DNA from: Myxococcaceae bacterium
Lineage (GTDB): Bacteria > Myxococcota_A > Polyangia > Polyangiales > Ga0077539
Direction: 5' to 3'
DNA length: 64,000 bases
NCBI GenBank assembly: GCA_028287085.1
Contig: JAQBQI010000114.1
Coordinates: forward strand, 6,755-70,754
The translations under genes and the position numbers were made by a program. The notes under the pieces were generated by a model that saw nothing but the letters and a program-made list of their open reading frames with translations, had not been told where the DNA came from and ran no database searches. Below are positions 15,201 to 27,668 of this stretch, piece by piece (positions within the stretch are counted from its first letter, which is position 1; each line of letters opens with the position of its first letter).

Positions 15201-15303
15201 CTACCTCAGGTACAGGTCGCGAGAGTCCGACGCGATCCCACAGTGGGCCTCGCTCGATGAGCTGCGCGTCGTCGGTGTCGTCCGGGGACGCTACGAGGGC
15301 TGA
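9265..15303 (+). CDS. Giant DEAD/DEAH-box helicase fused to a DUF1998-type zinc/Cys domain (DruE-like; DrmA+DrmB-like)
   Basis: Starts MSTVSETVSEL. Walker A is VVMTGTGSGKTECF (9589-9618). DEAH box is LLVIDEAHLY (10321-10332). TSAS motif III is present. Helicase-C motifs: VLLFSDSRPTAARL, YQQRAGRAGRRG. The DUF1998-like Cys clusters are CTRCGRIEP and GGCDTSCYQCLRSFKNRRDHHLLD (14476-14520). About 250 aa of unassigned C-terminal sequence follow. Confidence 0.85.
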   Translation: MSTVSETVSELRGALGSYIEATYHISEPTLIRQRSEILTKDGVIAQIPFVESTPRYEAGAALRTLSIGPASRAMLETLSRKPLVVHDPPYKHQTQSLEEVAAGRSLVVMTGTGSGKTECFLLPILSKLAEEASARGVAFGHDHAVRALVLYPMNALVNDQLGRLRLMFGDSRVVDQFMAWSGRPVRFARYTSRTPYAGERGKEGGSSGAERDGVYLKAIREYYVSLLRKADLDPSGTQAALVAELKKRGRWPAKPDIGEWFYGERDWRSKDEKYAPEWRKRGGDKGYKRAVTLPRDSELITRHEVQATPPDVLVTNYSMLEYMLMRPIERSIFDATRGWLERNPKERFLLVIDEAHLYRGAAGAEVALLIRRLGARLGISADRLQVICTSASFGDSSRAPAFAADLTGKRPEDFVPVTGVLDRRPGAAEGDAAEADLLAGIPWLAACEGDAAARWAAVEPLLNARGVSRRDDVAIALYEALSLFAPMSLLVNVTMAGARHVSGRPLRASGDDTAALSLAETVFPTAPERVAEQAVTALLALGSLAKRDADHPGLLPCRVHAFFRGLPGLWVCIDQSCSALAPELRGGSCGRLFAQPRERCDCGAKVLELFTCRACGTAYARAYVPDLERLESLWAEPGASFMAAPNDGDDGAPDVEALAPLDLLLSRPDDDRLKDDEDPVESVDIDLTTGRINALHRGPRTRTVWVRADRSPKPDRPRGAGHDAAAAQGNSRSLEKAGRGQFVPCGSCGERMRGGRSTVQDHQTKGDQPFQAVVKRQIEVQPADPRRPATPFAPLRGRKVLLFSDSRPTAARLAPNLQNYAYRDLTKALLLVGWRELESQPASQWDLDDLYLALLVGASSLDVRLRPALGREESFSGPDALRRARETRRDMKAELRRLTPPLSVMRALIEPLADRYYGFEALALASLAEAEPERSAILQLPAIAGIVDNDDQRLALARAWIRAYAAQCGVAISHTHDTLKGDEVRRHKSGDFEALKALLRDKAAIKQFKATWLKPLLHTFTTDGYLDGGRLRLDLSLEWAYCDRCRATQRPFPGLARCIACGAHRVRVIQPDADPVFRARKDYYRRDARAAMLQRRSPVAPVVREHTAQLGAADKSDAYSKAEEYELLFQDVDLGVDDRGQPRVAVDVLSCTTTMEVGIDIGTLSGVALRNMPPARANYQQRAGRAGRRGNTIATVVAFGSADSHDEQYFTYPAEMIRGPVRDPRITLDNADIARRHVTAFVLQRYLHEQVRDAQANRRGLFSVLGTVGQFLTSQAPPNARDFAQWLRGSEAALVRELEAWLPTELSGQERAAIVSGLADATVAAVDKALAGAMMDPTAASARPLGSAAGSDDGEADDEAQDHPAAEGDARDGASRAAENLLDRLLYGGALPRYAFPTDVGTFHVFKHDSPPFRPKFEHAPSQGLPIALTQYAPGKQIWVDNRLWLSGALYSPYTPERPAAWQRRRLYFECSNCHFATTTEFDLQKRGSVGECPACRSPDSFGPGRLWLRPPGFAHPVDAAPGTTPDDEPAVSYATRAKLVAGGPPDESRWRDCVPSVRVAPLHEHLLVTNTGPRDKGYDYCTRCGRIEPSAGETKLTRSSHTRPYPSRDPRCPGGGTTDGIVLGTDFISDVSLFRLKLADPVRLPPGTHAAEVALRTLSEALSRAACSVLEVEPNELQAEFRPALSAGGFDGSEVEIYLYDTLAGGAGFSRRAAEFGAKLLEEALSLLEECAAGGGCDTSCYQCLRSFKNRRDHHLLDRQVGAALLRHLLRGEPPTVNASRREHLLSQLHDDLRRIGVDANLERGRLCVRANGALVGVVDVQSALTPYAVLDQTGGKVVGISELMLRLNLPRASERVLEDLSVAGGEVLLGAAAAVRAPAVDVACRSVADLPTLLDKDAPEGDLLLRVPRATIGGEQAFRAGEILVIDRCDADPVSAIPANADKALLLLRTTGSFMRTGEPWTIAFCELRSRAGESVAYLRYRSRESDAIPQWASLDELRVVGVVRGRYEG

Positions 15304-17957
15304 TGGCAACTATTCGACCTGATGTCGATCCGGGAACGATTCGTCCACTCTCTGAGCAGGCGGTGCTCCTCGCGCTCCGGGACCAACTCCCGGACGACTT
15401 CCTCGTGGTGCACTCGTTTCCCTGGCTCAAGCCGATGAGCGGGTCGCTTCGCGAGGGCGAGGCAGACTTCGTCATCATCCACCGGCGCCTCGGGATGCTC
15501 GTGCTGGAGGTCAAGGGCGGCGACCTGTTGTTCGAGAGTCATCAGTGGTTTCGGCTCAAGGCGGGAGGTCGGGAGAGGGTCAAAAACCCGTACGAGCAGG
15601 CTCGCGATAACATGCACTCACTCGTCGAGTACGTCGCGCGTCGAACGCCCGCGCCGCTGCTCTACGGCTATGCCGTCGTCTTCCCCGACCACGTCGCGGA
15701 TGGCACCTGGCCCGCCGACGCCGAGGCCTCTGCGACCATGCTGAACGCCGACATGCCGAACTTGGGGGCGCGAGTCGTCGCCGCGATGGAGGCGTGGGCG
15801 CGGCGCAGGAGACAGCTGACTGACGCTGAGTTCCAGCAGGTCGTTGACGCGCTGCTCCCTCGGCTGCGGCTGCGTCGCCCGCTTGGGCCGTGGGCGATCC
15901 AGGCGTCCGCGCGCCTGCTTGAGGTAACGGCGGGCCAGGTGCGCGCGCTCGACGCGCCGTGGGCGAGAGAGCGCGTGCTCGTGGAAGGCCCGGCTGGCTC
16001 CGGGAAGACCTTCATCGCGATAGAGCGCGCGTTGCGCGCCGCGGGCGACGGGTCGGAGGTGCTCTTCGTCTGCTTCAATGGAGCGCTCGCTGCCTGGCTC
16101 CGTGAGCAGCTCGCCCAGGACGTCGGGCGGTCCGGAGCTGCGAAACGAATTTCAGTACACCACTTCCACGCGCTCGCGCGGAACATCGCCCTGCAGGGGG
16201 GCGTGCCGTTCGTCGTGCCCGAAGAGCCGGCTGCGAGGGCGCGCTTCTGGGCGGAGGAGGCCTCGGGGCGGCTCGAGCAAGCGATGGACTTCGTCGGGAT
16301 GCGGTTTGACGTGATCGTCGTCGACGAGGCACAGGACCTCCGCACCGAGTGGTGGTATGCGATCCTAGGACTACGGCGTTCAGAGCAAGAGTCGCCTGTT
16401 TGGGTGTTTCGGGACGATCACCAAGCGCTCTTCGGTACCCCACCGCAAATTCCGTTGGAGTTTGAGCGTCACGAGAGTCTGGAGGAGAACTGCAGGAACA
16501 CGCGAGCCATTGCGGCGGGTGCCTCATCGATTGGGGGGACAAGTGCGCCGGCACGGTTCGGAGCGCCGGACGGACGCACCATCGAGGTGATCGAGGCATC
16601 AGGTCTGAACCACCGGTCGCTAGCGACGGAAATTGTCGAGCGGCTCCTGCGCGAGGATGGCCTCCAACCCGGCCAGATCGTCCTCATCGGCCCGAGAGCC
16701 CTCGCCAACGGCTCCCTCAAGGGCGCCCGAGAACTCTCCGGCGTGCCTCTGACCGACGACGCGCGCGAGTGGCGGCTTGGGGGCCGGATTCTCGTGACGA
16801 CAGCGCGCAAGTTCAAGGGCCTCGAGGCTGACGTGGTCGTGCTCTACGACTTGGGCGGTCTCTCTGTCGGCGAGGGGGCCTTCACCCGCGCGGATCTCTA
16901 CGTAGCAATGACCAGGGCGCGCGCGCACTTGATCGCGGTCTCGCACGACAGATCGACGCTCGAGGTTTTGCGAGGCGCTCAGCGCGTCAGCGAGGAGGCC
17001 GAGGTCTACGAAGTGATGGCGGCAGCAGAGGCGCCAGGGCGACGCGCGGAGACGTCTGAGGCCGTTCTGCTCGATCGTGTGCCATACCCGTTGGCCGCGC
17101 TTCACCGGCTCTCTCGCTCGAGGCACGAGGCCAGCGCGAGGCTGTTCATGTCGCTGCGCTACGCTGAGGGAGTCGCGCGGTTTAGCGCTCTTGTGACTCT
17201 TGCCCAGAGCGCGACGAGCGGAGCGAATGCAGCCGAGGCCCGTCGGTGGCTCGGCCTCGCGGGCGACGGCACGTTCGCGAGTGCTCGCGCGCTGCTGGAG
17301 GAGGCGACCGAGTTCCTCGTGCGGAACAGGCTCGTGCCGCTGCTCGGCCCGGAGGCGGCGGAGCCGCGGCGTCGCCTGATACAGGCGTTTCGTGAGTTGG
17401 AGGCCGTATGCGTGCAGTTCGGCGGCGAGAGGCCCCGCGTCCCGGAGCAGGTGGCCGACGCGGCGCTTGCGGCCATGGAGCCTCATCTGTCGTTGGTTCG
17501 GGCGCATGCAACGACGTTCGAAGCCCTGCAACTCGGCTACTTCGACGGAACGACCTCCAACGGCGACGGCGTCCACTCGCACTTCTACCGAGCCCGCGGT
17601 GCGGTTGAGGTCGACGCGCCCGTTCGTGTGCAACTCCGAGTCGCGCCACCGCACCGCGTCGCCCTTCTCGTTGACACGCGCGATGGGCGCGCGCTGCCGC
17701 TGGCGCCGTTCGTACTCTTCACCACGCAGCAGGACGAACCGACGGACACCCTGATGTGGCTCGCCCGGCGCTCGGACGCGCGGCGGGGCGAGTGGGAGTA
17801 TCATCGCCCGGTGGGCGCACGGCGGCTCACCCAAAAACTTGCCGGGGTCGCGAGGGGACAGTCCGTTTTGATCGAGGAGTATGTGGGCAGGTTGTCTCAG
17901 TGGTTGGGGTTGCACCCTCTCGTGGCCGTTGGGGATCTGCCTCGCTTGTCGGCATAG
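15303..17957 (+). CDS. NERD-domain nuclease fused to a UvrD/SF1-like helicase (884 aa)
   Basis: The start overlaps the helicase stop (TGATG). The NERD-like N-terminus is LVVHSFPWL..EGEADFVIIHRRLGMLVLEVKGG. Walker A is VEGPAGSGKTF (15988-16014). Walker B is DVIVVDEAQDL. The UvrD_C-type end is TTARKFKGLEADVVVLYD..LYVAMTRARAHLI. About 320 aa at the C-terminus are unknown. Confidence 0.85.
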   Translation: MATIRPDVDPGTIRPLSEQAVLLALRDQLPDDFLVVHSFPWLKPMSGSLREGEADFVIIHRRLGMLVLEVKGGDLLFESHQWFRLKAGGRERVKNPYEQARDNMHSLVEYVARRTPAPLLYGYAVVFPDHVADGTWPADAEASATMLNADMPNLGARVVAAMEAWARRRRQLTDAEFQQVVDALLPRLRLRRPLGPWAIQASARLLEVTAGQVRALDAPWARERVLVEGPAGSGKTFIAIERALRAAGDGSEVLFVCFNGALAAWLREQLAQDVGRSGAAKRISVHHFHALARNIALQGGVPFVVPEEPAARARFWAEEASGRLEQAMDFVGMRFDVIVVDEAQDLRTEWWYAILGLRRSEQESPVWVFRDDHQALFGTPPQIPLEFERHESLEENCRNTRAIAAGASSIGGTSAPARFGAPDGRTIEVIEASGLNHRSLATEIVERLLREDGLQPGQIVLIGPRALANGSLKGARELSGVPLTDDAREWRLGGRILVTTARKFKGLEADVVVLYDLGGLSVGEGAFTRADLYVAMTRARAHLIAVSHDRSTLEVLRGAQRVSEEAEVYEVMAAAEAPGRRAETSEAVLLDRVPYPLAALHRLSRSRHEASARLFMSLRYAEGVARFSALVTLAQSATSGANAAEARRWLGLAGDGTFASARALLEEATEFLVRNRLVPLLGPEAAEPRRRLIQAFRELEAVCVQFGGERPRVPEQVADAALAAMEPHLSLVRAHATTFEALQLGYFDGTTSNGDGVHSHFYRARGAVEVDAPVRVQLRVAPPHRVALLVDTRDGRALPLAPFVLFTTQQDEPTDTLMWLARRSDARRGEWEYHRPVGARRLTQKLAGVARGQSVLIEEYVGRLSQWLGLHPLVAVGDLPRLSA

Positions 17958-18477
17958 TGACCCTGCTGGACAGGACCGACTCGATCGGCTGCTCGTGGGA
18001 GTTGGCGTGGATGGGGCACAAGGCGTCAGGCCACCTCGATGCACACGGACAGGAACGCTTCTGGCGCTGAGTTGGGTTGTCTATCGGTCGCAGAGAGCAG
18101 CGCCTGGACGCCTGCGCTATCGACCAACTCCGGCGGTTGGGACAAGAGGAGGTGATGCTGCTCGAACTTGGTGAGCGTGAGATCGTTGCGCTCGAATGGG
18201 GACGCAGTCGGTTGGCTTCGGCGAGGCGAGGATTTCTTCGGTGACGACGCCTCAGGGATTTGAGGGACGGCGTGCGAGACAGAGGCTCATTGCGGTATGA
18301 CGGACCTACAAGTCGCACCATGGGAACGCGTGCAGGCCAAAGTGCAGACCCTGTGGGATCGTCACTGGGCGTAGCCCGCGCGTTCTCTATACCGGCGGGA
18401 ACTACCGAGAACGTCGGTGGCTCACCAACGATCACGCTCTGTGCCACGTCGCGTTGCGCAACGATCTCCCGGGACGC

Positions 18478-19524
18478 CTAGCATGTCAGTTCGGCGGGTA
18501 AGGTGAATCGTCCGAGCGGTAGTCGGTACACGTCTCCCACGCCTCGGGTGTAGTCCTTGGGAGGCGCGAACGAACGAGGGGTAGGGTAGACGACCTGCAA
18601 ATCGCGCAGGAATCCACAGGCGATGCCGATGGCCAAGGACTGCATCTTGCTTCCTGTGGGCGAGATCACCAACTTCTCGCGCTGTCCGTGCTCCGCATAC
18701 ACGTCTAGGATCAAGTTGAGTGTCTCACGATAGTCCAGTGTGCTAACGTTGAACTCCTCCCGGGCGGGCAACGAGTCAACTCGGTTCAATTCGCGGATAA
18801 CGTCTCGGCGCCAAGCGTTCTGCGCGTCGGGAGGAGTGCCGTGAACGATCGTAAAATATGATGCCTGAATCTCCGAGCAGACCGCTGCGAGTTGAGTCGT
18901 GTTCCAAGAGGGGAAGGCGATGACGCGCATGGGTTGGCCCTGCATCGCGACGCTCGAGAGTTCGGGCACGATCGTGAGTCCGAATACGCCAGAGGAGACG
19001 AACATCGTCACGCCAACCAAGTCGGCGGACTCGGAGAGAGTCTTCTCGACCTGCTCGCGTGTCGGTGGGTAGTCGAACGCGCTGCAGTACAAAACTTCGC
19101 AGAGCGCCGAGCGGCCACCGCGCACGATCGACGACACGAGTTGGACAATGAGGAGGCGCGACATGCCAGAAAGGTCGATGTGGATGCGATCGGCGGAGGG
19201 CACCTGCGCGAGGATGCGCTCCGCCGTGCCCGCGGGGCGCTCTCGGTCGAACGGGACCGACTCGAGCGTCGCCTGCGCGGAGGCGCACAGGCTGGCGACC
19301 TCGGTTCCTCGGTTCTCTGGGATCTCCGGAAGGTATCCGATGCACAGGACGCGAAAGCCGTGGCAACCAGAACGGACGGCGCGTCGTAGCACCTCAATAG
19401 CGCGATCCTCGAATCCCGCGCACATCAAGAGCACATCACCTACGCCTAGCTTCGGCGCAATCCCCACGTGCAGTTCGGGCTGGGACAGCCGCCGGAGCCA
19501 CTCATCGACACGGCAGACTCGCAT
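18478..19524 (-). CDS. Hypothetical two-lobed Rossmann-like protein (348 aa), possibly CARF/DUF1887-like
   Basis: Starts 3 nt after the kinase stop. It shows alternating beta-alpha patterns (VLLMCAGFEDRA..; RIHIDLSGMSRLLIVQLV..; MRVIAFPSW..; KLVISPTGSKMQSLAIGIACGF). The last block resembles the TGGTK.MS ligand-binding motif of CARF-type folds, but the match is weak. Confidence 0.6.
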   Translation of the reverse strand: MRVCRVDEWLRRLSQPELHVGIAPKLGVGDVLLMCAGFEDRAIEVLRRAVRSGCHGFRVLCIGYLPEIPENRGTEVASLCASAQATLESVPFDRERPAGTAERILAQVPSADRIHIDLSGMSRLLIVQLVSSIVRGGRSALCEVLYCSAFDYPPTREQVEKTLSESADLVGVTMFVSSGVFGLTIVPELSSVAMQGQPMRVIAFPSWNTTQLAAVCSEIQASYFTIVHGTPPDAQNAWRRDVIRELNRVDSLPAREEFNVSTLDYRETLNLILDVYAEHGQREKLVISPTGSKMQSLAIGIACGFLRDLQVVYPTPRSFAPPKDYTRGVGDVYRLPLGRFTLPAELTC

Positions 19525-19527
19525 CCG

Positions 19528-22035
19528 CTACTCCTTGGGTGGGTCAACGAGCCCAAGCGAGAGTTGCTCTGACGGTGCGGCAGAGCCAGCGCTCTGCGGC
19601 TCACTCCTCTCACCTCTGTCACTCTTGAGCCGCTTCCTGCCCTCGAACACCTTTGGGTCGAGAAGGAGATCCTTGAAATCGTCGACGCTGAGTTCGAGAG
19701 AATCGCGACGACTGAACGTGAGGTTGAAGAACGGAATCAGAAACCTTCGTAGGTACAACCGAGGGACGACGTTGCCGCGCCGGCTCTTGCCGCGGACGTC
19801 CTCGATGAACACTGAGTAGCGGAGCAGGTCGTCGTAGACCTCCTTCGCCTTACCCGTCAGGTGGGGGTCCTCGTAAGGCTCGATGCGAGAGGCCTGGTGC
19901 GGAGGGCTTGAAGTCTCGTTCTTCGAGTCGCGGAACCGAAGGTAGGACGACGCGACGCTGCCGAAGGCCTCCACGATCTCGACCAGCGCTTGTCCCGTTG
20001 GGAGGGCGCGCAGGTTGCGAAGGAAATTGCCCGCCTCGGCGCGGATCGCCTTGTTCTGCGCCTCGGGGGAGACCGCAGGCACCTCGGCTCCGCCCCGCAA
20101 AGAATCCGGCCCGCCGGCTGATGCGACCATCTTCCCTACGAGTTCGATGAGGAAGTGGACGTCGCCGCTACACAACTCCCCCAGTGCGCGGCGGCCCCAG
20201 ATCTTTGGGTGCCTTCCATCTCTCAGCGATCTCGCGGTTTCGTTGTGCGGCACCGCGGTCGGCTCGTCTCCCACAAGGGACTCAAGGGAGGACACCGGGT
20301 AGTCTTTCGTGTATCGGAAGCGCCGGTTGAAGACGTCGTCGACAAAACGCAGCTTGTCGTCGCTCTCGGCGTTGATGAAGTCGATCCCCAGGTTAATGAG
20401 GCGAAATTCCCGGCCCTCCACGTAAGATTTGGTGTCAACGTCACTGCTCTCGTACGAGGCAGGGCTCTCGGTGGCCAGTTTGAAGAAGCATGCGGCGCTC
20501 CGCTGCATCAAGAGGCGGTTCAGGGTTCGTTGGAGGTCGCTGCTAATCTTGGGGGTCGAGTAGTCGTCGAAGAAGAAGAAGATCGGTCGCCCTGCGAGCG
20601 GCGACAATTGCTGAGCCAGCGTCGAACACACCGCCGGCAGGACACCCGGACCGAAGTACTGCCCGAAGGTATGAGTAAGATCGTCGACGAATCGCTGCTT
20701 CTTGGCGGCACGTTCGCGCTCTTGGCCAAGGGCGCGCTGGAGCGCGCCGAAGGAGTCCGCGCTCGGTTGCTGCGGCTTCTTGAGGCCGAGCACGGTCCAG
20801 AGCTCACGCGCTACCGAGGCCTCGTCACGCTGCCAAGCCGCTGGAAACCGTCGCGAGAGCCAGAGTCCGAGCGCCTCGAGGAGTTCGCGGACGAGCGTCG
20901 CCGTTACGAAGTGCAGAGGGACGTCGAGCGCCTCTGTGCGTGCGGGCAGCGCGTATCGCGGAAAATTGAAATACAAGTCGTCGCAACGATAGTAGATGCC
21001 GATGTATGAAATGGAGTCTGGTGCATCATCCTGCGTGTAGAAACGATGCTTCAGGCTGAGGCTTCGGAAGACTGTCGTCTTCCCGCACCCGCGCGGTCCC
21101 GTCAGTACGAGGTTGTTGGTCTCCTCGATGGCCCGCAGGCCGAGCATCTTGTCCGAGTACAGCTCTTTGAGGAGAGCGTGAGACTCCCCGATCTGCTCAC
21201 AGCTGAGGTAGTCGAACGGAGTACTGAGTGTGCGCCGAGCGACGCCCGCGGTGCGAACCGCGAAGGCCCGCTGCGCCTCGCGCAAGGACTCAAAGAGAAG
21301 GCGGGGATTGCGCGCCCGTTCGTCGTGCGCGGGGTCTCGCTCCAGCAGCCCCTTGGCCAAGAAGTCGTCGTTGAGGACGTCGAACATGTACCGGTCCTCG
21401 GGGGCGCATGACTGGTAGTCGACCCTGGTCAGGAGGTCACGTAACATGAGCGCGAGCTGATCGAAGTCGCCCAGGAGGGCTGCCCCCGTGGTGAGGGGAG
21501 CGACGCCAAAGTCGGTCACCCGGAACGCGTAGGGCGGCCCAACGAGCGAGGCCGACTTGTCCTCGACGAGCACGTTGCCGGAATGGAAGTCCCCGTGTTG
21601 AAGGGACAGGTCCTGCAATTCCCGCAGGAAATCCAGCATGTCCATGAAGAAGTCCAGCACAAAGGGAATCGTGACCGTACTCTTCTTCTGATACTCGCGC
21701 AGCGTTGACCCCCGAACCAGATCGGACAAGAGGAACACGCAGTCGCCGTCAGCGCAGGGCCAAGTACCCGTGCCATAAAACTTGACCACGCGGTTCGACG
21801 GCACTCGATTTGCGTTGAGGATCTCTTGCTGCCAAGTCGGAGGCTCGCGCTCGGCGCCGATTAGGTTAGCAACCGGGATCACCTTGCAGGCAATCTCCCG
21901 GGCGAGCGCGTCGGCGCGCGCCATGAAGACGTGGGCGTTGCAACCCGAGCCGAGTTTATCGACAATGACGTACTCGGGATGAGCCGGTACCGGCTGTCCG
22001 ATGAACTGCGCGGCTTCGGGTAGGTTTCTTCGCAT
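19528..22035 (-). CDS. Ser/Thr protein kinase fused to a P-loop ATPase (835 aa)
   Basis: The kinase motifs are intact: KLGSGCNAHVF (Gly loop), IACKVIP (Lys), HGDFHSGNVLV (catalytic loop), VTDFGVA (DFG). The C-terminal ATPase has LVLTGPRGCGKTTVF (Walker A) and PIFFFFDDYS (Walker B). A GGAG RBS precedes ATG 22035. Confidence 0.85.
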   Translation of the reverse strand: MRRNLPEAAQFIGQPVPAHPEYVIVDKLGSGCNAHVFMARADALAREIACKVIPVANLIGAEREPPTWQQEILNANRVPSNRVVKFYGTGTWPCADGDCVFLLSDLVRGSTLREYQKKSTVTIPFVLDFFMDMLDFLRELQDLSLQHGDFHSGNVLVEDKSASLVGPPYAFRVTDFGVAPLTTGAALLGDFDQLALMLRDLLTRVDYQSCAPEDRYMFDVLNDDFLAKGLLERDPAHDERARNPRLLFESLREAQRAFAVRTAGVARRTLSTPFDYLSCEQIGESHALLKELYSDKMLGLRAIEETNNLVLTGPRGCGKTTVFRSLSLKHRFYTQDDAPDSISYIGIYYRCDDLYFNFPRYALPARTEALDVPLHFVTATLVRELLEALGLWLSRRFPAAWQRDEASVARELWTVLGLKKPQQPSADSFGALQRALGQERERAAKKQRFVDDLTHTFGQYFGPGVLPAVCSTLAQQLSPLAGRPIFFFFDDYSTPKISSDLQRTLNRLLMQRSAACFFKLATESPASYESSDVDTKSYVEGREFRLINLGIDFINAESDDKLRFVDDVFNRRFRYTKDYPVSSLESLVGDEPTAVPHNETARSLRDGRHPKIWGRRALGELCSGDVHFLIELVGKMVASAGGPDSLRGGAEVPAVSPEAQNKAIRAEAGNFLRNLRALPTGQALVEIVEAFGSVASSYLRFRDSKNETSSPPHQASRIEPYEDPHLTGKAKEVYDDLLRYSVFIEDVRGKSRRGNVVPRLYLRRFLIPFFNLTFSRRDSLELSVDDFKDLLLDPKVFEGRKRLKSDRGERSEPQSAGSAAPSEQLSLGLVDPPKE

Positions 22036-22061
22036 CGGTAGCTCCGCTGCCGGGTCTCGCG

Positions 22062-23276
22062 TCAGAGCAAGACCGGCTGCATTGTCCGGTCAGACGCGGA
22101 ATTTCGGAATACGAGGACAGTCTCGCGCTTGGTGCCACGGAGGTCGCGGCGGGAGCGGCGGATGTCGGGGATGACATCGTGGATGACGCGCTCAAGACGG
22201 AACCCTGCGAGTTCGTGAGTGCTAGAGAAGAGCGAAGTAATGATGGACGAACTGTCGAGAACCTTCGAACCGCGGCTGGCCTCGCCGACCACTAGGATGA
22301 TGACGCCGCGCTCGGAGATGGCCGGGGCGATGCGCGTGAAGGTCTCCCGCATCAGCGCCCGGAACTGCACCTCTCGGGCCCGCTTGGGGATGTCTCGCTG
22401 TAGAGGGAGGGCACGTTCGAGGACCCACAGGCGGAGCCGATTGTCGCGAACATAATCGAGTTCGTTCATGTACGGCGGGCTGGTGATGACCGCGTCGACG
22501 GTGCCGGAAAGACGAAGATCGCGGCTGTCTCCGTGAACGACAACGGACGGCATTCGGCACTTGGGAGGCCGTCGGTAGGTTCGCCGGACCTTTGCTTCCA
22601 TCCGGCTAAGTACGTCGCGCTCCTTGTAAAGCTCGGGAAACTCCAAGGGCTCGAACAACTTGTCTCGGAGGTAAGGTACGAGGTGACTGCTAGGGAACGA
22701 CAGAAAGCCCGGGCGCTGGTGATGCAGGATGCCCAGCAGGCACGCCAGGAGGAACCAATCGGAGCGAGCGACGAGTTCGTCACGCAGCGCGAGGGCGTTG
22801 CGCAGGGTTTCCTTGTGGAAGAACGCCCGAACCCACTGCGGTACGGAGCGAAGATCCTGCGAAGGGATCCGCACACTCGCGGCCTCCCACCGGGCGGCGA
22901 GGCGGCGGAGTGCAACCGCTTCAGAGGACGGAGCCCGGAGCTTCGCGCGCGTCAGCAGTACACCATAGGGGTTGATGTCGTTGGCGATGACGCGACGTCC
23001 CAGTAATGATGCCTCGAGGGGAATCACACCCGACCCACAGAAGGGGTCGAGAACGCGCTGGCCAGGGTCCGTGAACTCCCTGATGAGGTAGCTCGCGATG
23101 GTCGTCTTGATCCGACCGATGTAGGGCGCCAGTTGGTGCAGCGTGCAATCGGTGGCAGTCGTGCACCCGGGCGACCAGGGGACCTCCTCGGGATGTCGAG
23201 GCGTTTCAATATCGCCGCCCGGCGAGGTGCCAGCAACTTCCGTAGGGGCCGCGCTCCGCTCGATGAACACACCCAC
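22062..23276 (-). CDS. DNA methyltransferase (N4-C or N6-A type; SPPY motif)
   Basis: Motif I is VLDPFCGSGVIPLEA and motif IV is VITSPPYMNELDY. The only upstream in-frame start is GTG 23276, 2 nt after the thyX stop, so the exact start is uncertain. Confidence 0.8.
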   Translation of the reverse strand: MGVFIERSAAPTEVAGTSPGGDIETPRHPEEVPWSPGCTTATDCTLHQLAPYIGRIKTTIASYLIREFTDPGQRVLDPFCGSGVIPLEASLLGRRVIANDINPYGVLLTRAKLRAPSSEAVALRRLAARWEAASVRIPSQDLRSVPQWVRAFFHKETLRNALALRDELVARSDWFLLACLLGILHHQRPGFLSFPSSHLVPYLRDKLFEPLEFPELYKERDVLSRMEAKVRRTYRRPPKCRMPSVVVHGDSRDLRLSGTVDAVITSPPYMNELDYVRDNRLRLWVLERALPLQRDIPKRAREVQFRALMRETFTRIAPAISERGVIILVVGEASRGSKVLDSSSIITSLFSSTHELAGFRLERVIHDVIPDIRRSRRDLRGTKRETVLVFRNSASDRTMQPVLL

Positions 23277-23278
23277 GG

Positions 23279-24214
23279 TTAGTCGCCCATTATCCGCGTC
23301 CAGGTGACACGCAAGCCGAGAAGGTCGAGTTTTTCCTCGAATTCATCGAGTTCGCGGCCCCGCTGCGTGCCCGAGGAACCTGCAGGGAGGACACCCTCCG
23401 CGATCGCGATCTCACGCACCTGGCCTGGCGAGTCGGTGAGCGCTCGGATGATGGCGATCTCGCTCCGCGTGAGCGAAAGTGCAGACAGGCGGTAGTCCAC
23501 AAACGCTTCCCACGCCATCGGGCACCACTGCTGGACGATCTGTTCTCCGATGACCTCAGCGTATGCGCGGATCTCGGCCTGTGCGTGCGGGTCCATTCGG
23601 AGCGCGAGGAAGTGGAGCAGGTTGTGCAGATCGACCTTCCAGTAGGCCTCGGTGTAGGTCGACAGAGGAAGATCCTTGCGCGCCTGTTCACGCGCGACCC
23701 CGAGGTCCAAGCGCTCCTCGTACGCGCGGCGCGCACGCTGCTGAAGTTCGTCCTCCTCCGCACTCAGCGCAGCGCCGGTTGCCGCGTCTAGGTACTCGCC
23801 GCTGCCCTGACGATTCTGGGCGGATTGGCGCCGCCACGCATCGGGCGCGGTCCGCTGGGCCGCGTCGATCGCGATGGAGTAGCGCGTTGAGTACTCGTTG
23901 ACGTTGGCGGTGCGATGGCGAATCCACTGGCGCCAGCAATCCATTGGCACCCGCACGTGGAGCTTGATCTCGCACATCTCCAGGGGCGTCGTGTGTCGGT
24001 GCCGCAGGAGGTACCGAATGAGGCCCTGATCCTCATGCACCTTCTTCGTTCCTTGGCCATAGGAAACTCGCGCCGCCTGCACAATGGATTCGTCGCCCCC
24101 CATGTAGTCAACGACCCTGACGAAGCCATCGTCGAGAACCGTGAGTCGCTTGCCAAGAATGCCGTCAAGAGCAGGAACGGTCACCCTGGCGATCTGGCCA
24201 TCGGGGTCGGTCAT
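23279..24214 (-). CDS. thyX: Flavin-dependent thymidylate synthase ThyX
   Basis: 311 aa. The ThyX signature RHRTANVNEYSTRYS is present, along with the conserved N-terminal block LDDGFVRVVDYMGGDESIVQAARVSYG..LIRYLLRHRHTTPLEM. By eye its GC is closer to the downstream MTase/kinase genes than to the ~70% GC flanks. Confidence 0.85.
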   Translation of the reverse strand: MTDPDGQIARVTVPALDGILGKRLTVLDDGFVRVVDYMGGDESIVQAARVSYGQGTKKVHEDQGLIRYLLRHRHTTPLEMCEIKLHVRVPMDCWRQWIRHRTANVNEYSTRYSIAIDAAQRTAPDAWRRQSAQNRQGSGEYLDAATGAALSAEEDELQQRARRAYEERLDLGVAREQARKDLPLSTYTEAYWKVDLHNLLHFLALRMDPHAQAEIRAYAEVIGEQIVQQWCPMAWEAFVDYRLSALSLTRSEIAIIRALTDSPGQVREIAIAEGVLPAGSSGTQRGRELDEFEEKLDLLGLRVTWTRIMGD

Positions 24215-24548
24215 TGGGTCGCCAGAAGGGTCCGAGGGCGTCCGATCTCCCGCGACGGCATCGGCGCCCAGGATCGCTGTTGCGAGCGCGACTCGAGCGC
24301 ACGCCGGTGCGCGGATCCGTGGCGTTGCCGATCTCTCGTGTGGGCGTTCACGGCGCGATCCTACTACAGGTGCCGGCGCCCGCTAGCGGGGTCGGTCCGC
24401 AGAGTAGAGTGGGGCGCCACCGCCTCGGTCCGTGATCTGTTGCGTCGACCCCTCGGCCGCGACGCGGACGCGGTCGATGTGCGGGCTCGATGAGGCGCAG
24501 GGAGGACGGACCGGCGCGCCTTGGCATCGGTCCAACGAGTCCCGCCCG

Positions 24549-26561
24549 TCAGCGTAGCGTCAGCTCGTCCGGCTCGTCAGCCCGACCGAGACGCGAGACG
24601 AGCAGCTCGTGCGGTCTCTTCCGTTCGGTGTCGACGAGCGCCTGGCCGTGGTCGACCCGCGACGCGAGCCACCGCGAGCGCCAGAATTCGGCGACCGCCT
24701 CGACGCCGTCGTCCCCGACCACCCGTGGCACTCGGGGGCTGACCCCCAGCAGAACGCGGCGCACACACTCGATGAGGGGTGCCACGTAGACGATCCTCGG
24801 CGAGCCGTGCTGGATGAGGTCGGCGTCAGAGAGGTTCAGAGCCACCGTCGCTTCCCGCAGCTCCCTCAGCTTCGCGCTCTGACCCTCGCCGAAGACGAAG
24901 TTCACGTTGCGGACGTCGCGGCGCTCCGCGGCGACCTCTGCAAGCACCTCCTCCGCCTCGACACTCAGATTCGTGGATCCGTGGCCGAGGCTCCGTCCCA
25001 CCTCCCGGAAGCCGAGCGGCGACGGCTGCTCCGCGAGCGTTCCCGCGGGGACCTTCACCCGGTTGTACTGCGAGGACCGCTCAGGGTAGAGGCTCGTCGT
25101 CGTGACCATCGCCAGCTCCGGCGAGCGTACCAGGGGGCGGCCGGCCATCTGGCTTGCGATCACGCTCGGCTCGTTCTGGTAGGCCTCCTTCACCGCGTCG
25201 CGGACGAAGGGTGTGAGCATCAGCATGCACGCCAGCTTCCCCGCCAGGAGCGGACCGTAGGGGGGAACGGCGCCGCAGGTCGCGATGTCCATGACCGAGG
25301 CCGCTGCGAAGTGCTGCTTGACCTGCCGGAGCGCGAGCGCCATCGCGTTCTTCGCGCGGGCGTCGAGTACGGCGTCTCGGAGTGGTGCGCGCATCGCCGC
25401 GAGCTCGTGATCCAACCTCAAGAGGATGCGCGCCGTGTTCGCGCGCTTCGCGCGGAAGAGCGGGGTACGCGCTGCGGCGATGAGCGCCGCGTGGTCGAAG
25501 GCGACCTTTCGGTCGACGGCGCTCGTGCGAAGCCCCTCCAGACGGGCCGCCTGAGCCACCTCCGCGATAGATCCCAGGTGTGCATCGAGCGCCGCGTCGC
25601 GGCGAGGCGGCGAGGCGCCATCGAAGCCGAGATCCTCCGTGTAGAGGTTGGCGAGGTCCTCGCGGACCCGTCGGCGCAGGGCGTCGAGGACCTCGTCGTC
25701 CGTGACCTCGCCCTGCTCGATCAGCGCGAGCAGTCCGTGGACGGTCCAGCCGATCCACTCGTCGCGGGCCGTCAGCTGAAGGACCGCGCTGCTGAGCGCG
25801 GTGATCGCCATGATCGGATGAAACGGCCGCGACGCGTCGCGGATCAGGAACGCGATGTGTCGGCCGGGCGGCCTGCGGTAGCGGCTGCTCCACGTGTATC
25901 GGAAATAGCGCCAGACGTGGAAGAGGTTGAGCCCGGTGTATGGATCGCGCGCGTTGGAGGTGGCGATCTGGATGTAGGGGCAGCACACCTTGCGCAGCGC
26001 TTCAGGGCGGGTCGCACGAGGCATCTCTGCGATCACCCGGAGGTCGTCCGCGATGCGCTTCCCGTCGGCGATCAAGTGGAGGACTGACTTGTGCCTCGCA
26101 CCACGCGACGGTCGCTCGATCTTCTCCACGAACCGCTGCACCGACTCAGATTGGAGCTGGTCGTCGCGCCCGTGCAGCAGCTGGCGGCGGACGAGTTGCT
26201 TCGCGGGCGTCGCGCCTCGTTGGTGGGGCCGCACCGAGATCGCGTCGCGGTGGACCCGCACGTGCCAGCCGAGATGGATCAGGTCGCGCAGGATCAGGAG
26301 CGATGCGAGGTACCGCTTCGGCATCGGGTCCGTGGCGCGCACGGTGCTGATCTCGTCGTCGAGCGAGGTGAGCCGCTCCACCTCGCTGCGGTTTCGAAGC
26401 AGCTCGGCGAGCCGCGACGTCGGTCGTTCCACCTCGACCTTCGGCGTGAACGGCCGCCAGCCGTCGCCCTCGTCTTCGGGTGGAGCGGCGACGTCCTCGT
26501 CGTCGGTCTCAATGGCTGCGTCCTGCACCGGCGCGTTCCTAGACCGGCGGGCCGTTGGCAC
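24549..26561 (-). CDS. DUF4338-like (DruA-like) protein, 670 aa; last gene of module X
   Basis: Blocks FHVWRYFRYTWSSRYRRPPGRHIAFLIRDASRPFHPIMAITALSSAVLQLTARDEWIGWT, CGAVPPYGPLLAGKLACML and TTTSLYPERSSQYNRV fit my recollection of the DUF4338 pattern (..RD.WIGW..). It is a clear paralog of the 35634-37739 product. Confidence 0.7.
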   Translation of the reverse strand: MPTARRSRNAPVQDAAIETDDEDVAAPPEDEGDGWRPFTPKVEVERPTSRLAELLRNRSEVERLTSLDDEISTVRATDPMPKRYLASLLILRDLIHLGWHVRVHRDAISVRPHQRGATPAKQLVRRQLLHGRDDQLQSESVQRFVEKIERPSRGARHKSVLHLIADGKRIADDLRVIAEMPRATRPEALRKVCCPYIQIATSNARDPYTGLNLFHVWRYFRYTWSSRYRRPPGRHIAFLIRDASRPFHPIMAITALSSAVLQLTARDEWIGWTVHGLLALIEQGEVTDDEVLDALRRRVREDLANLYTEDLGFDGASPPRRDAALDAHLGSIAEVAQAARLEGLRTSAVDRKVAFDHAALIAAARTPLFRAKRANTARILLRLDHELAAMRAPLRDAVLDARAKNAMALALRQVKQHFAAASVMDIATCGAVPPYGPLLAGKLACMLMLTPFVRDAVKEAYQNEPSVIASQMAGRPLVRSPELAMVTTTSLYPERSSQYNRVKVPAGTLAEQPSPLGFREVGRSLGHGSTNLSVEAEEVLAEVAAERRDVRNVNFVFGEGQSAKLRELREATVALNLSDADLIQHGSPRIVYVAPLIECVRRVLLGVSPRVPRVVGDDGVEAVAEFWRSRWLASRVDHGQALVDTERKRPHELLVSRLGRADEPDELTLR

Positions 26562-26582: not shown

Positions 26583-27668
26583 TCAGGGAGCGAGGGGCAG
26601 TCGTCTCCGCCCGTCTGTCTGTCGCACGGGGCAGATGCGGGTCAGGGCGCCTGGGCAGCGTCGGCATGCGTCCACCCCCTTGTGCATGCAGTCACCCGGC
26701 ATCGCGCGGCGGTTCGAAGCGCTCATGAAGAGGTACATGGCCTGTTGAACGACGCGGGGGTTGTTGCGCCGGAGTCCGCGCCGCAGCGAGGCGAGGTCGA
26801 TGCGCTCCGCGAGCCCCCGCACGAACGCGCGGCGGGCCTCGTACGATCGCGGCCCGCGGTAGGCGAGCGCCGTGAGGAAGAGGTCGACGTTGCTGTCGAT
26901 CACGATGAAGTGCCGCCAGTCCACGTCCGACCACACGGGGACGCCGGGGGTCATGTCGGGGTTGCTCACGATCGAGAGGAACATCGCCGCGATCTTCTCG
27001 CTGATGCGCCACGCCCGGGAGAGCGCCGCGACCAACGCCCGTGCGCGCGCGGCGCGCCCGCGAGTGCCCGCGCGAACGAGCGCGAGCAGCTCGGCGAGGT
27101 CGCGCGCGCCGCCCTCCCGCACCACGAGCGCCACGGACGTCGGCACCTTCCCGAAGTGCCCGTAGCGCCGCATGAGCACCGTGTGCCGCTTGAGGTGACA
27201 CTCGACCTCGGGGTTGGCGCCGCAGATCCCGCGCTTCGTGAGCGCGTGCTTCGTCAGGTCGCAGCGCACGCGCAGGGTCTCCGTGGTGCGCATGTGCTCG
27301 CAGCGCCCCTCATCCACCAGGGCGAGCAGGGGAGCCGACGCGCCGAGCTCGCCGGCGTCCTCGCGCGTCATGGAGCGGAGGATGCGGGTGATCTGGTTGT
27401 CCTGGCGGCGCTGGAACATCGTGACGGCCACGAGCAGCCGGAAGAGCGCCTCGCCGTCGTGCGCGACCAGCGCCTCGCGCGACACCGCGAACGCGCCAAC
27501 GCGTTTCGGGTTGCAGAACACCTGCGCCGTGCCCTGGTCGTCGGGCGAGCTGTGGTGCGTCGCAAGGTACCAGCGCACCGCTGCGCGGGCGACCTCCACC
27601 TGGCGTGACGTCGGGGTCGGCGCTGGGGCGCCGGCCCCGCCAGGAGCGTGGGTTCGGGGCGCCGTCAC
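26583..27668 (-). CDS. Endonuclease III/HhH-GPD-superfamily-like protein with a C-terminal 4-Cys (Fe-S type) loop
   Basis: There is an HhH-like segment WRISEKIAAMFLSIV followed by FIVIDSNVDLFLTAL (compare GIG.KTA..FL and VDTH..RV in Nth/MutY). The C-terminal cluster is CMHKGVDACRRCPGALTRIC. The proposed start is GTG 27668 in a GTGA overlap with the upstream stop; the ORF is open up to 27749. Confidence 0.45.
   Translation of the reverse strand: MTAPRTHAPGGAGAPAPTPTSRQVEVARAAVRWYLATHHSSPDDQGTAQVFCNPKRVGAFAVSREALVAHDGEALFRLLVAVTMFQRRQDNQITRILRSMTREDAGELGASAPLLALVDEGRCEHMRTTETLRVRCDLTKHALTKRGICGANPEVECHLKRHTVLMRRYGHFGKVPTSVALVVREGGARDLAELLALVRAGTRGRAARARALVAALSRAWRISEKIAAMFLSIVSNPDMTPGVPVWSDVDWRHFIVIDSNVDLFLTALAYRGPRSYEARRAFVRGLAERIDLASLRRGLRRNNPRVVQQAMYLFMSASNRRAMPGDCMHKGVDACRRCPGALTRICPVRQTDGRRRLPLAP

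Follow-up and report, generated by a model that had tools for sequence, protein, structure and literature searches.

BREX type 2, also known as Pgl, is composed of the PglX methylase, the PglW kinase, the ORC-Cdc6-like ATPase PglY/BrxC and PglZ (PMC12839542). In MADS, an eight-gene system, methylase, kinase and ATPase genes are likewise found in one defence locus, and Stk2 and PD-T4-6 are single-gene kinases that are triggered by phage proteins. In PADLOC-DB, the CARF6 family is covered by models PDLC01910-01925, which we take to derive from the CARF/SAVED classification of Makarova et al. 2020. These entries, including the fused CARF-STK-AAA form, are domain-family models and not a defined or tested system.

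Here we describe a four-gene cluster from a 64-kb stretch of DNA of a Myxococcaceae bacterium (the window, in the following, is this whole stretch), in which thyX is followed by genes encoding a putative DNA methyltransferase (MTase), a kinase::ATPase fusion and a 348-aa protein that belongs, together with the fusion, to the PADLOC CARF6/CARF-STK-AAA family. A full-text literature search, outside the scope of which the 2020 CARF classification lay, found no published account of this module, and neither the BREX-diversity paper (PMC12839542) nor the Domainator paper covers it.

Results

Organization and base composition of the locus

An initial annotation, made from the sequence alone, had placed the four genes at 18478-24214 with spacings of 2, 26 and 3 nt, and the recomputed gaps were identical, with all four ORFs intact (Table 1). 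The overall GC content of the cluster genes is 0.62-0.636, whereas that of the flanks is 0.69-0.73 in the DruA and Dnd-like genes on one side and 0.67-0.68 in the DruD/E and NERD helicase genes on the other. The GC3 value of thyX (0.772) lies among those of the three other cluster genes (0.753, 0.780 and 0.754) and not near that of the adjacent upstream DruA gene (0.872). Because measured GC and GC3 agree in this respect, the likeness of thyX to the MTase and kinase genes, previously judged by eye, holds.

Table 1. Features of the four-gene cluster and its borders (positions in the window)
Feature	Position	Strand	Remarks
CARF6 protein gene	18478-19524	minus	348 aa; intact ORF
Kinase::ATPase fusion gene	19528-22035	minus	835 aa; intact ORF
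C-terminal region of the fusion (aa 701-835 and stop codon)	19528..19935	minus	highly conserved
ORC/Cdc6-like ATPase domain of the 835-aa fusion	19936..21138	minus	Pfam PF24389, 2.3e-37
Hanks-type Ser/Thr kinase domain (aa 1-290 of the 835-aa fusion)	21166..22035	minus	Pfam Pkinase, 2.4e-09
MTase gene	22062-23276	minus	404 aa; GTG start; intact ORF
thyX	23279-24214	minus	311 aa, long form; intact ORF
15-nt direct repeat, copy 1 (CGATCTCCCGGGACG)	18462..18476	+	2 nt past the stop codon of the last gene; tentative
15-nt direct repeat, copy 2 (CGATCTCCCGCGACG)	24243..24257	+	29 nt upstream of the thyX start codon; tentative

The neighbours of the block in the window are DruA, DruD, DruE, a NERD-UvrD helicase and a DndH-like ATPase, so placed that Druantia genes stand on both sides of it. 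We rejected the idea that the block belongs to the Druantia genes around it, since the module has no Dru genes beside it elsewhere: tblastn with the DruA, DruD and DruE of the window gave no match in 80 loci, and the druA-E co-occurrence expected of Druantia type I was not found.

The 15-nt repeat, which was spotted post hoc, occurs just twice in the 64-kb window, once on either side of the four genes; it was absent from every other locus checked, and no comparable bracketing repeats were found at loci L081, L083 and L086. Promoter and terminator scans gave chance-level results. The window is free of tRNA genes, which leaves no basis for inferring an att site from one.

Predicted proteins of the cluster

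The domain calls of the initial annotation (a flavin-dependent thymidylate synthase, an SPPY-type MTase, a kinase fused to a P-loop ATPase and a two-lobed, weakly CARF-like protein) agreed with the profile and structure searches, and the motifs that it had quoted (SPPY, the kinase residues, GPRGCGKT, the DD of Walker B and PTGSKMQ) were all found in the proteins and are conserved among their homologues. ThyX scored 185.7 bits against NCBIfam TIGR02170 (cut-off, 87.9) and matched Pfam Thy1 (PF02511) at 1.9e-52 and PDB 6j61 at 1.5e-70; its RHRTANVNEYSTRY motif is intact, and the sequence RHRTANVNEYS fits the pattern RHR(X)7S. ThyX is thus canonical in motifs and scores and is predicted to be a thymidylate synthase. 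Its relatives at 65-71% identity sit in ordinary core contexts, and no sequence feature was found that separates the ThyX of the window from housekeeping ThyX. The C-terminal extension was considered as a module-specific feature but dismissed, since many unlinked ThyX proteins likewise have the long form (~305-320 aa).

The MTase carries motif I (DPFCGSG, at aa 77) and a catalytic (D/N/S)PP(Y/F)-type motif IV (SPPY, at aa 266), as an amino-MTase does, and matches N6_N4_Mtase (PF01555; 1.7e-11) and UPF0020 (PF01170; 8.3e-12) with 45.0 and 45.7 bits, above the Pfam cut-offs, as well as PADLOC MTase_II (PDLC03325; 4.6e-25). The segment TSPPYMNxLDYxRDNRLRLW is kept in 76 of 77 homologues, as is SPPY itself. 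Conservation of the MTase is rather uniform: distant members share ~43-46% identity, and no target-recognition region stands out as clearly hypervariable, which is unusual for specificity diversification of the restriction-modification (R-M) type. RNA m2G methylases figure among the nearest matches of the enzyme in Pfam and NCBIfam, so we can only infer that DNA is the substrate, from the SPPY motif, the MTase_II matches and the Dcm-type methylase and Vsr in the corresponding slot of a sister system described below. The enzyme is presumed to be a self-marking DNA MTase.

In the kinase domain of the fusion protein, K51, E71, H147-G-D149, N154 and D175-F-G are invariant among 20 diverse homologues, which gives the full catalytic set of Hanks-type kinases (Lys, Glu, (H/Y)xD, Asn and DFG) on a bilobal fold. 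PknB and Stk1 were the top matches in both PDB sequence and Foldseek searches (TM ~0.6 across the whole domain), and PknI was also among the Foldseek matches. The domain looks active and is presumed to act as the effector or signal output. The P-loop part can now be identified as ORC-CDC6-like: it scored 129.4 bits against PF24389 (cut-off, 27), homologues of the fusion protein all keep Walker A (G313PRGCGKT) and Walker B (D490D491) unchanged, and the domain was modelled with good confidence. The C-terminal region contains the conserved sequences PPHQASRIEPYEDP ... RYSVFIEDVRGKSRRG.VVPRLYLRRFLIP and many invariant columns at aa 704-798, with pLDDT values below 50 at aa 704-722 and 736-835. When the complete 835-aa model was submitted to Foldseek, kinase matches dominated the results and nothing emerged on this region, which may form a winged helix or bind a partner, a role that we only infer.

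The 348-aa protein matches the PADLOC CARF6 model PDLC01917 over its full length (aa 29-335; 1.7e-13, 48 bits) and also residues 891-1179 of the 1187-aa fused model PDLC01925 ('CARF_STK_AAA'), which is covered by the kinase-ATPase and the 348-aa protein together. Its AF2 model (pLDDT, 88.8; pTM, 0.91) consists of two Rossmann-like lobes, and Foldseek matched these to the CARF domains of Csm6, Cam1, Can2, Card1, Csa3 and Cad1 with probabilities of 0.97-1.0. The motifs CAGFEDR, DxSGMSR and PTGSKMQ are invariant in the family. By hhalign, the family of the window protein aligned at 97% with a strong CARF6 member from locus L090, which itself matches PDLC01917 at 1.7e-80 (268 bits); the window protein is thus a divergent member of CARF6. 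This tandem CARF6 protein is presumed to be a nucleotide-ligand sensor or regulator that is bound to the kinase-ATPase. No cyclase or other ligand-generating enzyme was linked to the CARF6 genes among the conserved neighbours in the loci examined.

Conservation and genomic context of the three-gene operon

Relatives are encoded by 121 species-level genomes from many bacterial phyla, and 80 independent loci among them were fetched for comparison of gene order. The order MTase, kinase::ATPase, CARF6 recurs in essentially every locus with enough flanking sequence; in 73 of the 80 loci the MTase gene directly precedes the kinase gene, and in 77 the CARF6 gene directly follows the kinase::ATPase gene. 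Clustering of the ORFs of these loci yielded only three universal families (in 80, 77 and 73 loci) and no fourth conserved gene. Such a shared arrangement is far beyond chance. Pairwise identities co-vary strongly between MTase and kinase (r=0.91) and between CARF6 and kinase (r=0.90). Searches turned up more than 600 homologues of the kinase-ATPase along with 1020 CARF6-like cluster representatives, and in some organisms the two proteins are joined in a single polypeptide, as in the fused kinase-ATPase-CARF form of PADLOC. The segment 18478-23276 therefore represents a single copy of a three-gene operon that is widespread and horizontally mobile. Cultured carriers are Sorangium sp. So ce296 and Citreicoccus inhibens M34.

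The operon is often flanked by defence genes or mobile elements, such as DUF1156/DUF499, ArdA and ParDE at one locus, an integrase, an OLD-like ATPase, a relaxase and AbiE at another, and IS elements near further loci. AbiU, Hma, type III R-M and DISARM genes are present among 117 flanking ORFs of 17 loci. The module itself contains no nuclease or other obvious DNA-destroying activity. The three-gene module is probably anti-phage.

A sister system at L090 has the order Vsr, Dcm-type C5 MTase, HD-CE protein, ORC-CDC6-like ATPase and CARF6. Since a bona fide DNA methylase occupies the MTase slot there, together with Vsr, the sister system argues that this slot serves DNA marking. The exchange of the kinase for HD-CE defines a larger family that is built on a core of ATPase and CARF6.

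Linkage of thyX to the operon

The four-gene order, with thyX first, was found in 10 loci (the window, L081, L083-L088, L004 and L005) from at least two phyla; those placed in the kinase tree form one clade there, and thyX was missing from ~65 of ~70 loci with readable flanks. In the ThyX tree the linked sequences cluster, and two cluster members that had previously been unexamined then proved to be linked as well. Pairwise identities of ThyX and kinase correlate (r=0.67), and the thyX-MTase junction is a 2-4-nt gap or a 4-16-nt overlap in 6 of the 8 loci with called or listed genes. Among 11 examined loci with an MTase of the window type, 10 carry thyX, which is absent where that MTase was replaced. 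The neighbourhoods of the thyX-bearing loci vary (DruA, an AEP-like primase/Mom, DUF499, an integrase, IS110, or metabolic genes at L084 and L087), and one four-gene copy sits inside an integrase/relaxase element. Because thyX is coupled to the MTase gene, co-diverges with the module, occurs in varied neighbourhoods and is absent where the MTase subtype was swapped, it belongs to the mobile unit here, as the initial annotation had proposed; in the lineage of this copy, a canonical thyX now heads the operon and is co-transcribed and co-inherited with it. The further suggestion that thyX feeds a DNA modification through pyrimidine C5 chemistry found no support, as most loci do without the gene, ThyX is canonical, and an SPPY exocyclic-amine MTase shares no chemistry with the C5 methylation of dUMP; a DNA-modification role for thyX is unsupported.

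Independent adjacency of thyX was seen in other clades (L059 and L055) and beside the HD-CE sister system at L090; ~0.04 adjacent loci would be expected by chance. A P4-type (tyrosine) integrase directly adjoins thyX at L055 and L086, a different, HD-CE-type CARF6 system lies downstream of thyX at L090, and folC/trmB lie upstream of it at L084, so the association could partly reflect a recombination or integration hotspot. At L087 the block stands between ordinary metabolic genes, with an amidohydrolase gene upstream of thyX. When the 7-kb regions upstream of thyX from 13 loci were compared by tblastx, without a positive control, no match was obtained at 1e-10, even for amidohydrolase-carrying pairs; the claim that the upstream contexts differ rests on gene annotations and not on this comparison. 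The best 120 relatives of the window ThyX include no Myxococcus-type ThyX.

Discussion

We favour, with a probability of roughly 0.55, a methylation-gated defence with a kinase effector, in which thyX is a captured ordinary dTMP gene. The SPPY MTase would mark host DNA, as in restriction-modification or BREX, and the ORC/Cdc6-like AAA+ module with the conserved C-terminal region would spend ATP on engaging DNA and thereby detect unmarked or foreign DNA. Tandem CARF6 would form a complex with the ATPase and gate it through a nucleotide-type ligand held between the two lobes. As the output, the Hanks-type kinase might phosphorylate host or phage proteins so that infection is blocked, in the manner of Stk2, by an abortive or arresting response. 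The kinase would occupy an exchangeable effector slot, given that the sister system keeps ATPase and CARF6 and has a separate HD-CE protein instead, with a Dcm-type C5 methylase and Vsr in its methylase slot. ThyX most likely supplies ordinary dTMP; its gene was probably acquired from a host chromosome in a single capture, and the core mechanism would have no need of it. We propose that thyX has been retained because it heads the operon, because it benefits the carrying element, or both.

The position of thyX admits other readings. That it is a working part, coupling thymidylate or pyrimidine metabolism to immunity, seems unlikely to us, whether CARF6 were to sense a pyrimidine-derived nucleotide, the kinase to regulate ThyX and starve the phage of dTTP, or ThyX to buffer the host against a phage attack on its dTMP supply: the translationally coupled junctions, the retention across at least 10 loci and at least two phyla, the absence of thyX where the window-type MTase was replaced, and the independent adjacencies, including that to the sister system, in excess of chance would all suit such a role, but the great majority of loci lack thyX, the enzyme is canonical and 65-71% identical to relatives in core contexts, and its promoter-proximal position and the adjoining integrases provide neutral explanations. 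Decidedly unlikely, in our view, is the more specific proposal that the thyX clade is a subtype in which CARF6 senses a pyrimidine or nucleotide-pool signal without cyclase-made cyclic oligoadenylate (cOA) and gates a DNA-scanning ATPase, with a kinase that targets ThyX or replication proteins. At the opposite end, thyX might be a host housekeeping gene beside an integration or recombination hotspot for defence cassettes, so that its linkage would mean nothing for the module. The metabolic genes upstream at L084 and L087, the CARF6 system with an unrelated effector downstream at L090 and the tyrosine integrases speak for it; this reading, too, is an unlikely one, however, in view of the defence or mobile genes upstream of thyX in the window and at L081, L083, L086 and L088, its 4-nt overlap with a DUF499 gene at one locus, the location of the integrase in a relaxase-bearing element at another, and the differing annotated upstream genes, together with co-divergence with the kinase, a GC3 that fits the module and the lack of Myxococcus-type ThyX among the best 120 relatives.

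Other explanations concern the module as a whole. A kinase effector activated by cOA, acting in trans for type III CRISPR or CBASS with the MTase being incidental, would agree with the CARF fold, the CARF-like loop motifs and the place of the family in the CARF classification of PADLOC, yet it is quite improbable, since Cas10, a CD-NTase or another cyclase was never a conserved neighbour in ~90 loci, nor was Cas10 or CD-NTase among the top PADLOC families of the 117 flanking ORFs; and the MTase, being present in essentially all loci and co-diverging with the kinase, is not incidental. We regard as very improbable a module for replication or epigenetic control of mobile elements, made up of an ORC/Cdc6-like initiator, a methylase (cf. 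Dam and CcrM), a regulatory kinase and a dTMP gene. The ancestry of the ATPase, the occurrence of thyX and an AEP-like primase nearby in Sorangium and the many loci on mobile elements are in its favour, but the module also occupies many chromosomal sites without further replication genes, including sites between metabolic genes, the flanks are dominated by defence systems, and the swap of kinase for HD-CE is the effector-slot pattern of conflict systems. Finally, a reading of the cluster as a divergent form of BREX type 2 (Pgl) or of MADS is scarcely credible in spite of the similar parts list and of weak PADLOC matches to mad6 (kinase, 3.6e-13), mad2 (MTase, 1.3e-11) and mad8 (P-loop part). 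Neither the window nor the conserved neighbours in 80 loci include PglZ, BrxC/PglY, a large PglX-type MTase, mad1, mad3, mad4, mad5 or mad7; no PglZ, BrxC or PglX match was found in the four proteins or the flanking ORFs; NCBIfam MAD6 scored 30.9 bits against a cut-off of 460; and the partial mad2, mad6 and mad8 matches, which were the only ones to the mad1-8 set, are confined to generic kinase, SAM-binding and P-loop segments.

If the module is defensive, it would be a compact, very widespread three-gene system, with at least 121 species-level genomes in many phyla, that unites epigenetic self-marking, a BREX-like ORC/Cdc6-like ATPase and a cyclase-less CARF sensor with a kinase instead of a nuclease as its readout. 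As such, it would offer a small, tractable model of how BREX-like, nuclease-free methylation systems stop phage, and of what CARF domains sense beyond CRISPR and CBASS. That thyX, a gene with a housekeeping role elsewhere, has been stably captured at the head of a putative defence operon is unusual, and either shows in a clean form how a metabolic gene hitchhikes on defence islands or hints that nucleotide metabolism and immunity are connected; were thyX wired into immunity, the clade would exemplify the use of a cyclase-independent CARF sensor within methylation-based defence.

Comparison with known systems

The initial annotation had noted a resemblance to Pgl while setting the cluster apart from BREX, and the profile searches bore out this distinction and extended it to MADS: they tied the proteins to the CARF6 domain models of PADLOC and not to Pgl or MADS models. 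Its claim of novelty must be moderated, in that the association of kinase-ATPase and CARF6 already exists as PADLOC HMMs ('CARF6--CARF_STK_AAA'). What goes beyond those models and was worked out here is the MTase as an obligatory partner, the sister variant with HD-CE and the clade that carries thyX.

With BREX type 2/Pgl the module shares a DNA methylase, a Hanks-type kinase, an AAA+ ATPase of the ORC/Cdc6 clade and the lack of a classical restriction nuclease. It is without PglZ, BrxB/iSTAND, BrxD and BrxHI and has CARF6 in addition, its MTase is a 400-aa SPPY enzyme whereas PglX has 1200 aa, and its kinase is fused directly to the ATPase, whereas that of BREX type 2/Pgl is fused to NERD and wHTH modules. 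The likeness to MADS lies in the methylase, kinase and ATPase genes of one defence locus and in weak HMM similarity to mad2, mad6 and mad8; however, the module has three genes instead of eight, lacks nuclease components and includes CARF6, which is absent from MADS. An active-looking eukaryotic-like Ser/Thr kinase as the likely output recalls Stk2 and PD-T4-6, and PD-T4-6 models match the kinase domain at 1e-9 to 1e-13, but, unlike these single-gene kinases, that of the module forms one chain with an AAA+ ATPase and essentially always comes with an MTase and CARF6. Each lobe of the CARF6 protein resembles the CARF effectors of type III CRISPR (Csm6, Can2, Card1, Cam1, Cad1 and Csa3) in structure and in the positions of the loop motifs, whereas the chain differs from them in having two CARF-like lobes, no fused effector and no linkage to Cas10 or a cyclase. 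The window ThyX, for its part, matches canonical ThyX (PDB 6j61; T. maritima 1O26) over the full length, with RHR(X)7S and the substrate-binding residues kept, and differs only in its location, as the first gene of a putative defence operon on mobile DNA.

Architecture of the four-gene block and its surroundings

The initial annotation described four tightly packed minus-strand genes, and this was confirmed: the ORFs are intact and separated by gaps of only 3, 26 and 2 nt. The resemblance in GC content noted by eye between thyX and the rest of the block also holds. All four genes have a GC content of 0.62-0.636, as against 0.69-0.73 for the genes on the right (DruA, Dnd-like) and 0.67-0.68 for those on the left (DruD, DruE, NERD helicase), and the GC3 of thyX (0.772) lies among those of the other three genes (0.753, 0.780 and 0.754), whereas that of the neighbouring DruA is 0.872. 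The 64 kb contain just two copies of a 15-nt direct repeat, CGATCTCCCG(G/C)GACG (14/15 identical), one lying 2 nt past the final stop codon and the other 29 nt ahead of the thyX start. Noticed post hoc, these repeats would bound a 5.8-kb insert consisting of exactly the four block genes and may be an insertion scar; the repeat was absent from the other loci, and no such bracketing was seen at those checked.

Features of the window and of the comparison loci
Feature	Sequence	Position	Strand	Remarks
ATP-grasp RiPP maturase	window	2964-3959	+	TIGR04187, 9.5e-56; microviridin/graspetide type
981-aa ORF	window	5256-8201	+	directly upstream of DruD; unmatched in Pfam, PADLOC and NCBIfam
DruD	window	8192-9268	+	converges on block from left; GC3 0.74-0.80 with DruE
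DruE	window	9115-15303	+	converges on block from left; GC3 0.74-0.80 with DruD
NERD-UvrD helicase	window	15303-17957	+	PADLOC RTasNERD-Hel, 1.5e-43
15-nt repeat, first copy	window	18462-18476
CARF6 protein, 348 aa	window	18478-19524	-	intact ORF
Kinase-ATPase, 835 aa	window	19528-22035	-	intact ORF
C-terminal region of kinase-ATPase	window	19528-19935	-	aa 701-835
SPPY MTase, 404 aa	window	22062-23276	-	intact ORF
ThyX, 311 aa	window	23279-24214	-	intact ORF
15-nt repeat, second copy	window	24243-24257
DruA	window	24549-26561	-	upstream of block, same strand; GC3 0.87
DndH-like ATPase	window	27665-32362	-	upstream of block, same strand
Two overlapping ORFs	window	32359-33768, 33758-35386	-	precede DndH-like gene; no matches
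Tyrosine integrase, P4 type	L086	6656-7852		adjoins thyX
Tyrosine integrase, P4 type	L055	15544-16896		adjoins thyX
HD-CE system	L090	7001-13987
Decaying operon	L064	10001-19779

The block lies within a defence island. On either side of it stand Druantia type I genes, in two separate and converging parts: DruA lies ~9 kb from DruD/DruE, and no DruB or DruC was recognised. The NERD and UvrD-like helicase, whose ORF begins at the final base of that of DruE, apparently shares a transcript with DruE and is possibly a Druantia accessory. When the DruA, DruD and DruE of the window were used as tblastn queries, no match was found at the 80 loci of the genome scan, which makes the block a neighbour of Druantia and not a member. 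Farther upstream, the C-terminal 380 aa of a 1565-aa ATPase match DndH (3.4e-78) and, more weakly, mad8. Together with the two ORFs preceding it, this gene may form a divergent DndFGH-like restriction module (27665-35386), and no dndA-E genes were seen near it. At the other end of the window, the ATP-grasp maturase gene has a strikingly low GC of 0.53 (GC3 0.52) against the 68% GC of the window.

Proteins encoded by the block

ThyX matched Pfam Thy1 (1.9e-52), TIGR02170 (185.7 bits against a cut-off of 87.9) and PDB 6j61 (1.5e-70) and contains the RHR(X)7S motif; judged from its sequence, it is a canonical flavin-dependent thymidylate synthase. In the 404-aa methyltransferase (MTase), motif I (DPFCGSG) precedes motif IV (SPPY), indicating a SAM-dependent amino-methyltransferase. 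Residues 1-290 of the 835-aa protein form an entire Hanks kinase fold, whose catalytic residues were invariant in 20 diverse homologues, and are followed by an ORC-CDC6-like AAA+ ATPase (PF24389, 2.3e-37) whose Walker A and B motifs are likewise invariant. The C-terminal ~130 aa are among the most conserved stretches of the protein and could not be placed by AlphaFold (pLDDT <50); they might need a partner, CARF6 or DNA, in order to fold.

No Pfam match was obtained for the 348-aa protein, which aligned over its full length with the PADLOC CARF6 model PDLC01917 (1.7e-13). Its AlphaFold model (pLDDT 88.8, pTM 0.91) has two Rossmann-like lobes, each with an invariant CARF-like loop (DxSGMSR and PTGSKMQ), and Foldseek retrieved the CARF domains of Csm6, Cam1, Can2, Card1, Csa3 and Cad1. 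The 835-aa and 348-aa proteins jointly span the 1187-aa fused PADLOC model 'CARF6--CARF_STK_AAA'; the kinase-ATPase and CARF6 are therefore a single polypeptide in some organisms.

Conservation of the three-gene operon and an HD-CE sister system

The kinase-ATPase has hundreds of full-length homologues with 42-85% identity. When one genome per species was scanned, 121 relatives came to light. The 80 loci fetched from among these represent Acidobacteriota, Myxococcota, Verrucomicrobiota, Planctomycetota, Nitrospirota and several proteobacterial classes, as well as Chloroflexota, Actinomycetota, Clostridia, Spirochaetia and candidate phyla. By tblastn and ORF clustering, the order MTase, kinase-ATPase, CARF6 was observed at essentially every locus with enough sequence, and no fourth conserved gene was detected at the fetched loci. 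The three proteins diverge in step, their pairwise identities being correlated (r=0.90-0.91). The CARF6-like family comprises 1020 representatives at 50% clustering, nearly all of them stand-alone proteins of ~350 aa. The operon flanks are heterogeneous and rich in defence and mobile genes, such as DUF1156/DUF499, ArdA and ParDE, or an integrase, OLD-like ATPase, relaxase and AbiE, or IS elements; AbiU, Hma, type III R-M and DISARM genes were present among 117 flanking ORFs from 17 loci, and at least one operon lies between metabolic genes. One locus, L064, is a decaying copy: its kinase-ATPase gene is broken after about residue 549 by an insertion of ~7 kb that precedes the CARF6 gene. It carries a window-type MTase (73% identity) and no thyX.

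At L090, encountered in the survey of thyX contexts, thyX precedes a tightly spaced gene set (4-nt overlaps or gaps) whose products are, in order, Vsr, a C5 DNA methylase of the Dcm type, an HD-CE protein (PF24391), an ORC-CDC6-like ATPase of 612 aa that lacks a kinase, and a protein of 327 aa. The last is a strong CARF6 member (PDLC01917, 1.7e-80) and a remote homologue of the 348-aa protein of the window (hhalign 97%, E 1.3e-10). Comparison of the two gene sets thus defines an invariant core of ATPase, CARF6 and methylase, in which the kinase occupies an exchangeable effector slot. The strongest argument at hand for DNA marking by the SPPY enzyme is that, at L090, the methylase slot is filled by an enzyme that is clearly a DNA methylase. 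This HD-CE sister system is new in this analysis.

Linkage of thyX to the operon

Most loci lack thyX. Among ~70 with readable flanks, it was found upstream only at L004, L005 and L059 and downstream only at L055. With the exception of L059 and L055, every thyX-positive locus with an assignable position in the kinase tree belongs to one clade, which comprises the window, Sorangium sp. So ce296 (L081), L083-L086, Citreicoccus inhibens (L004) and L005; L087 and L088, fetched after the tree, are thyX-linked and have kinases 68-73% identical to those of L084/L086. Throughout this clade thyX heads the operon, and in 6 of the 8 loci with called or listed genes its junction is either a gap of 2-4 nt or an overlap of 4-16 nt. 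The genes upstream of it vary: DruA in the window, an AEP-like primase and Mom in Sorangium, a DUF499 gene with a 4-nt overlap (L083), a tyrosine integrase whose element encodes a relaxase as well (L086), IS110 and an HTH gene (L088), and metabolic genes (L084, L087). A tblastx comparison of 13 upstream regions gave zero matches, a result that, having been run without a control, adds nothing to these annotations. In the ThyX tree, operon-linked sequences cluster, and two previously untested members of the cluster proved to be linked; in the other part of the tree, three of four tested members were in ordinary core contexts without the system, the fourth being L090. Identities of ThyX and the kinase correlate (r=0.67).

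A nested subclade (L001-L003 and L082) has kinases ~80% identical to that of the window (70-81% for kinase and CARF6), lacks thyX, and carries an MTase just 43-46% identical to the window's, ~300-480 nt upstream of the kinase gene. Here thyX appears to have been lost with the window-type MTase, the operon head having been swapped as a unit.

We also considered that part of the linkage is an integration-hotspot effect. At two unrelated loci (L086 and L055) thyX is adjoined by tyrosine integrases of P4 type that share a three-domain architecture, a hint that genomic islands may integrate at or near thyX, and the CARF6 system beside thyX at L090 is of a different kind. On these two observations we keep the hotspot explanation in consideration. 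Outside the clade there are three independent adjacencies (L059, L055 and L090), above the ~0.04 expected by chance in ~65 loci by our own estimate (3 kb of ~5 Mb each). Within the clade, thyX was probably captured once and then moved with the module. First-gene position, varied upstream genes, joint loss with the window-type MTase, co-divergence and ThyX-tree grouping bear out the proposal, made in the initial annotation from GC alone, that thyX is part of the acquired block, and this single-origin, co-inherited subtype is new in this analysis. The suggestion that thyX feeds a DNA modification found no support: ThyX is canonical, the core plainly works without it elsewhere and SPPY chemistry is unrelated to dUMP methylation.

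Proposed mechanism and comparison with known systems

The conserved operon, the intact kinase, ATPase and MTase motifs, the CARF-like fold, the ATPase-CARF6 fusion in some lineages, the defence and mobile context and the exchange of effectors are established here, and the module is a widespread, uncharacterised candidate for a methylation-associated defence system. In the model that we propose, the MTase would mark self DNA. Interrogation of DNA would fall to the ORC/Cdc6-like ATPase and its conserved C-terminus, perhaps a winged helix, and CARF6 would tune the ATPase by way of a nucleotide that it binds. When unmarked DNA is detected, the kinase would be freed to act on host or phage proteins, leading to growth arrest or abortive infection. 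The model is weakened because the module contains no nuclease and the MTase family alignment shows no obviously hypervariable recognition region.

In the literature searched, which stopped short of the 2020 CARF classification, no published description of the module was found; that classification probably mentions the kinase-ATPase fusion. The systems nearest in their working are BREX type 2/Pgl and MADS, both of which likewise combine a methylase, a kinase and an ATPase without a classical restriction enzyme. Profile searches upheld the initial exclusion of BREX/Pgl, since the module has no PglZ, BrxC or PglX, and MADS did not fit either (MAD6 model, 30.9 versus a cut-off of 460). The claim of novelty is narrowed by the CARF6 family, to which the module belongs, being already modelled in PADLOC, as a domain classification that is neither a named nor a tested system.
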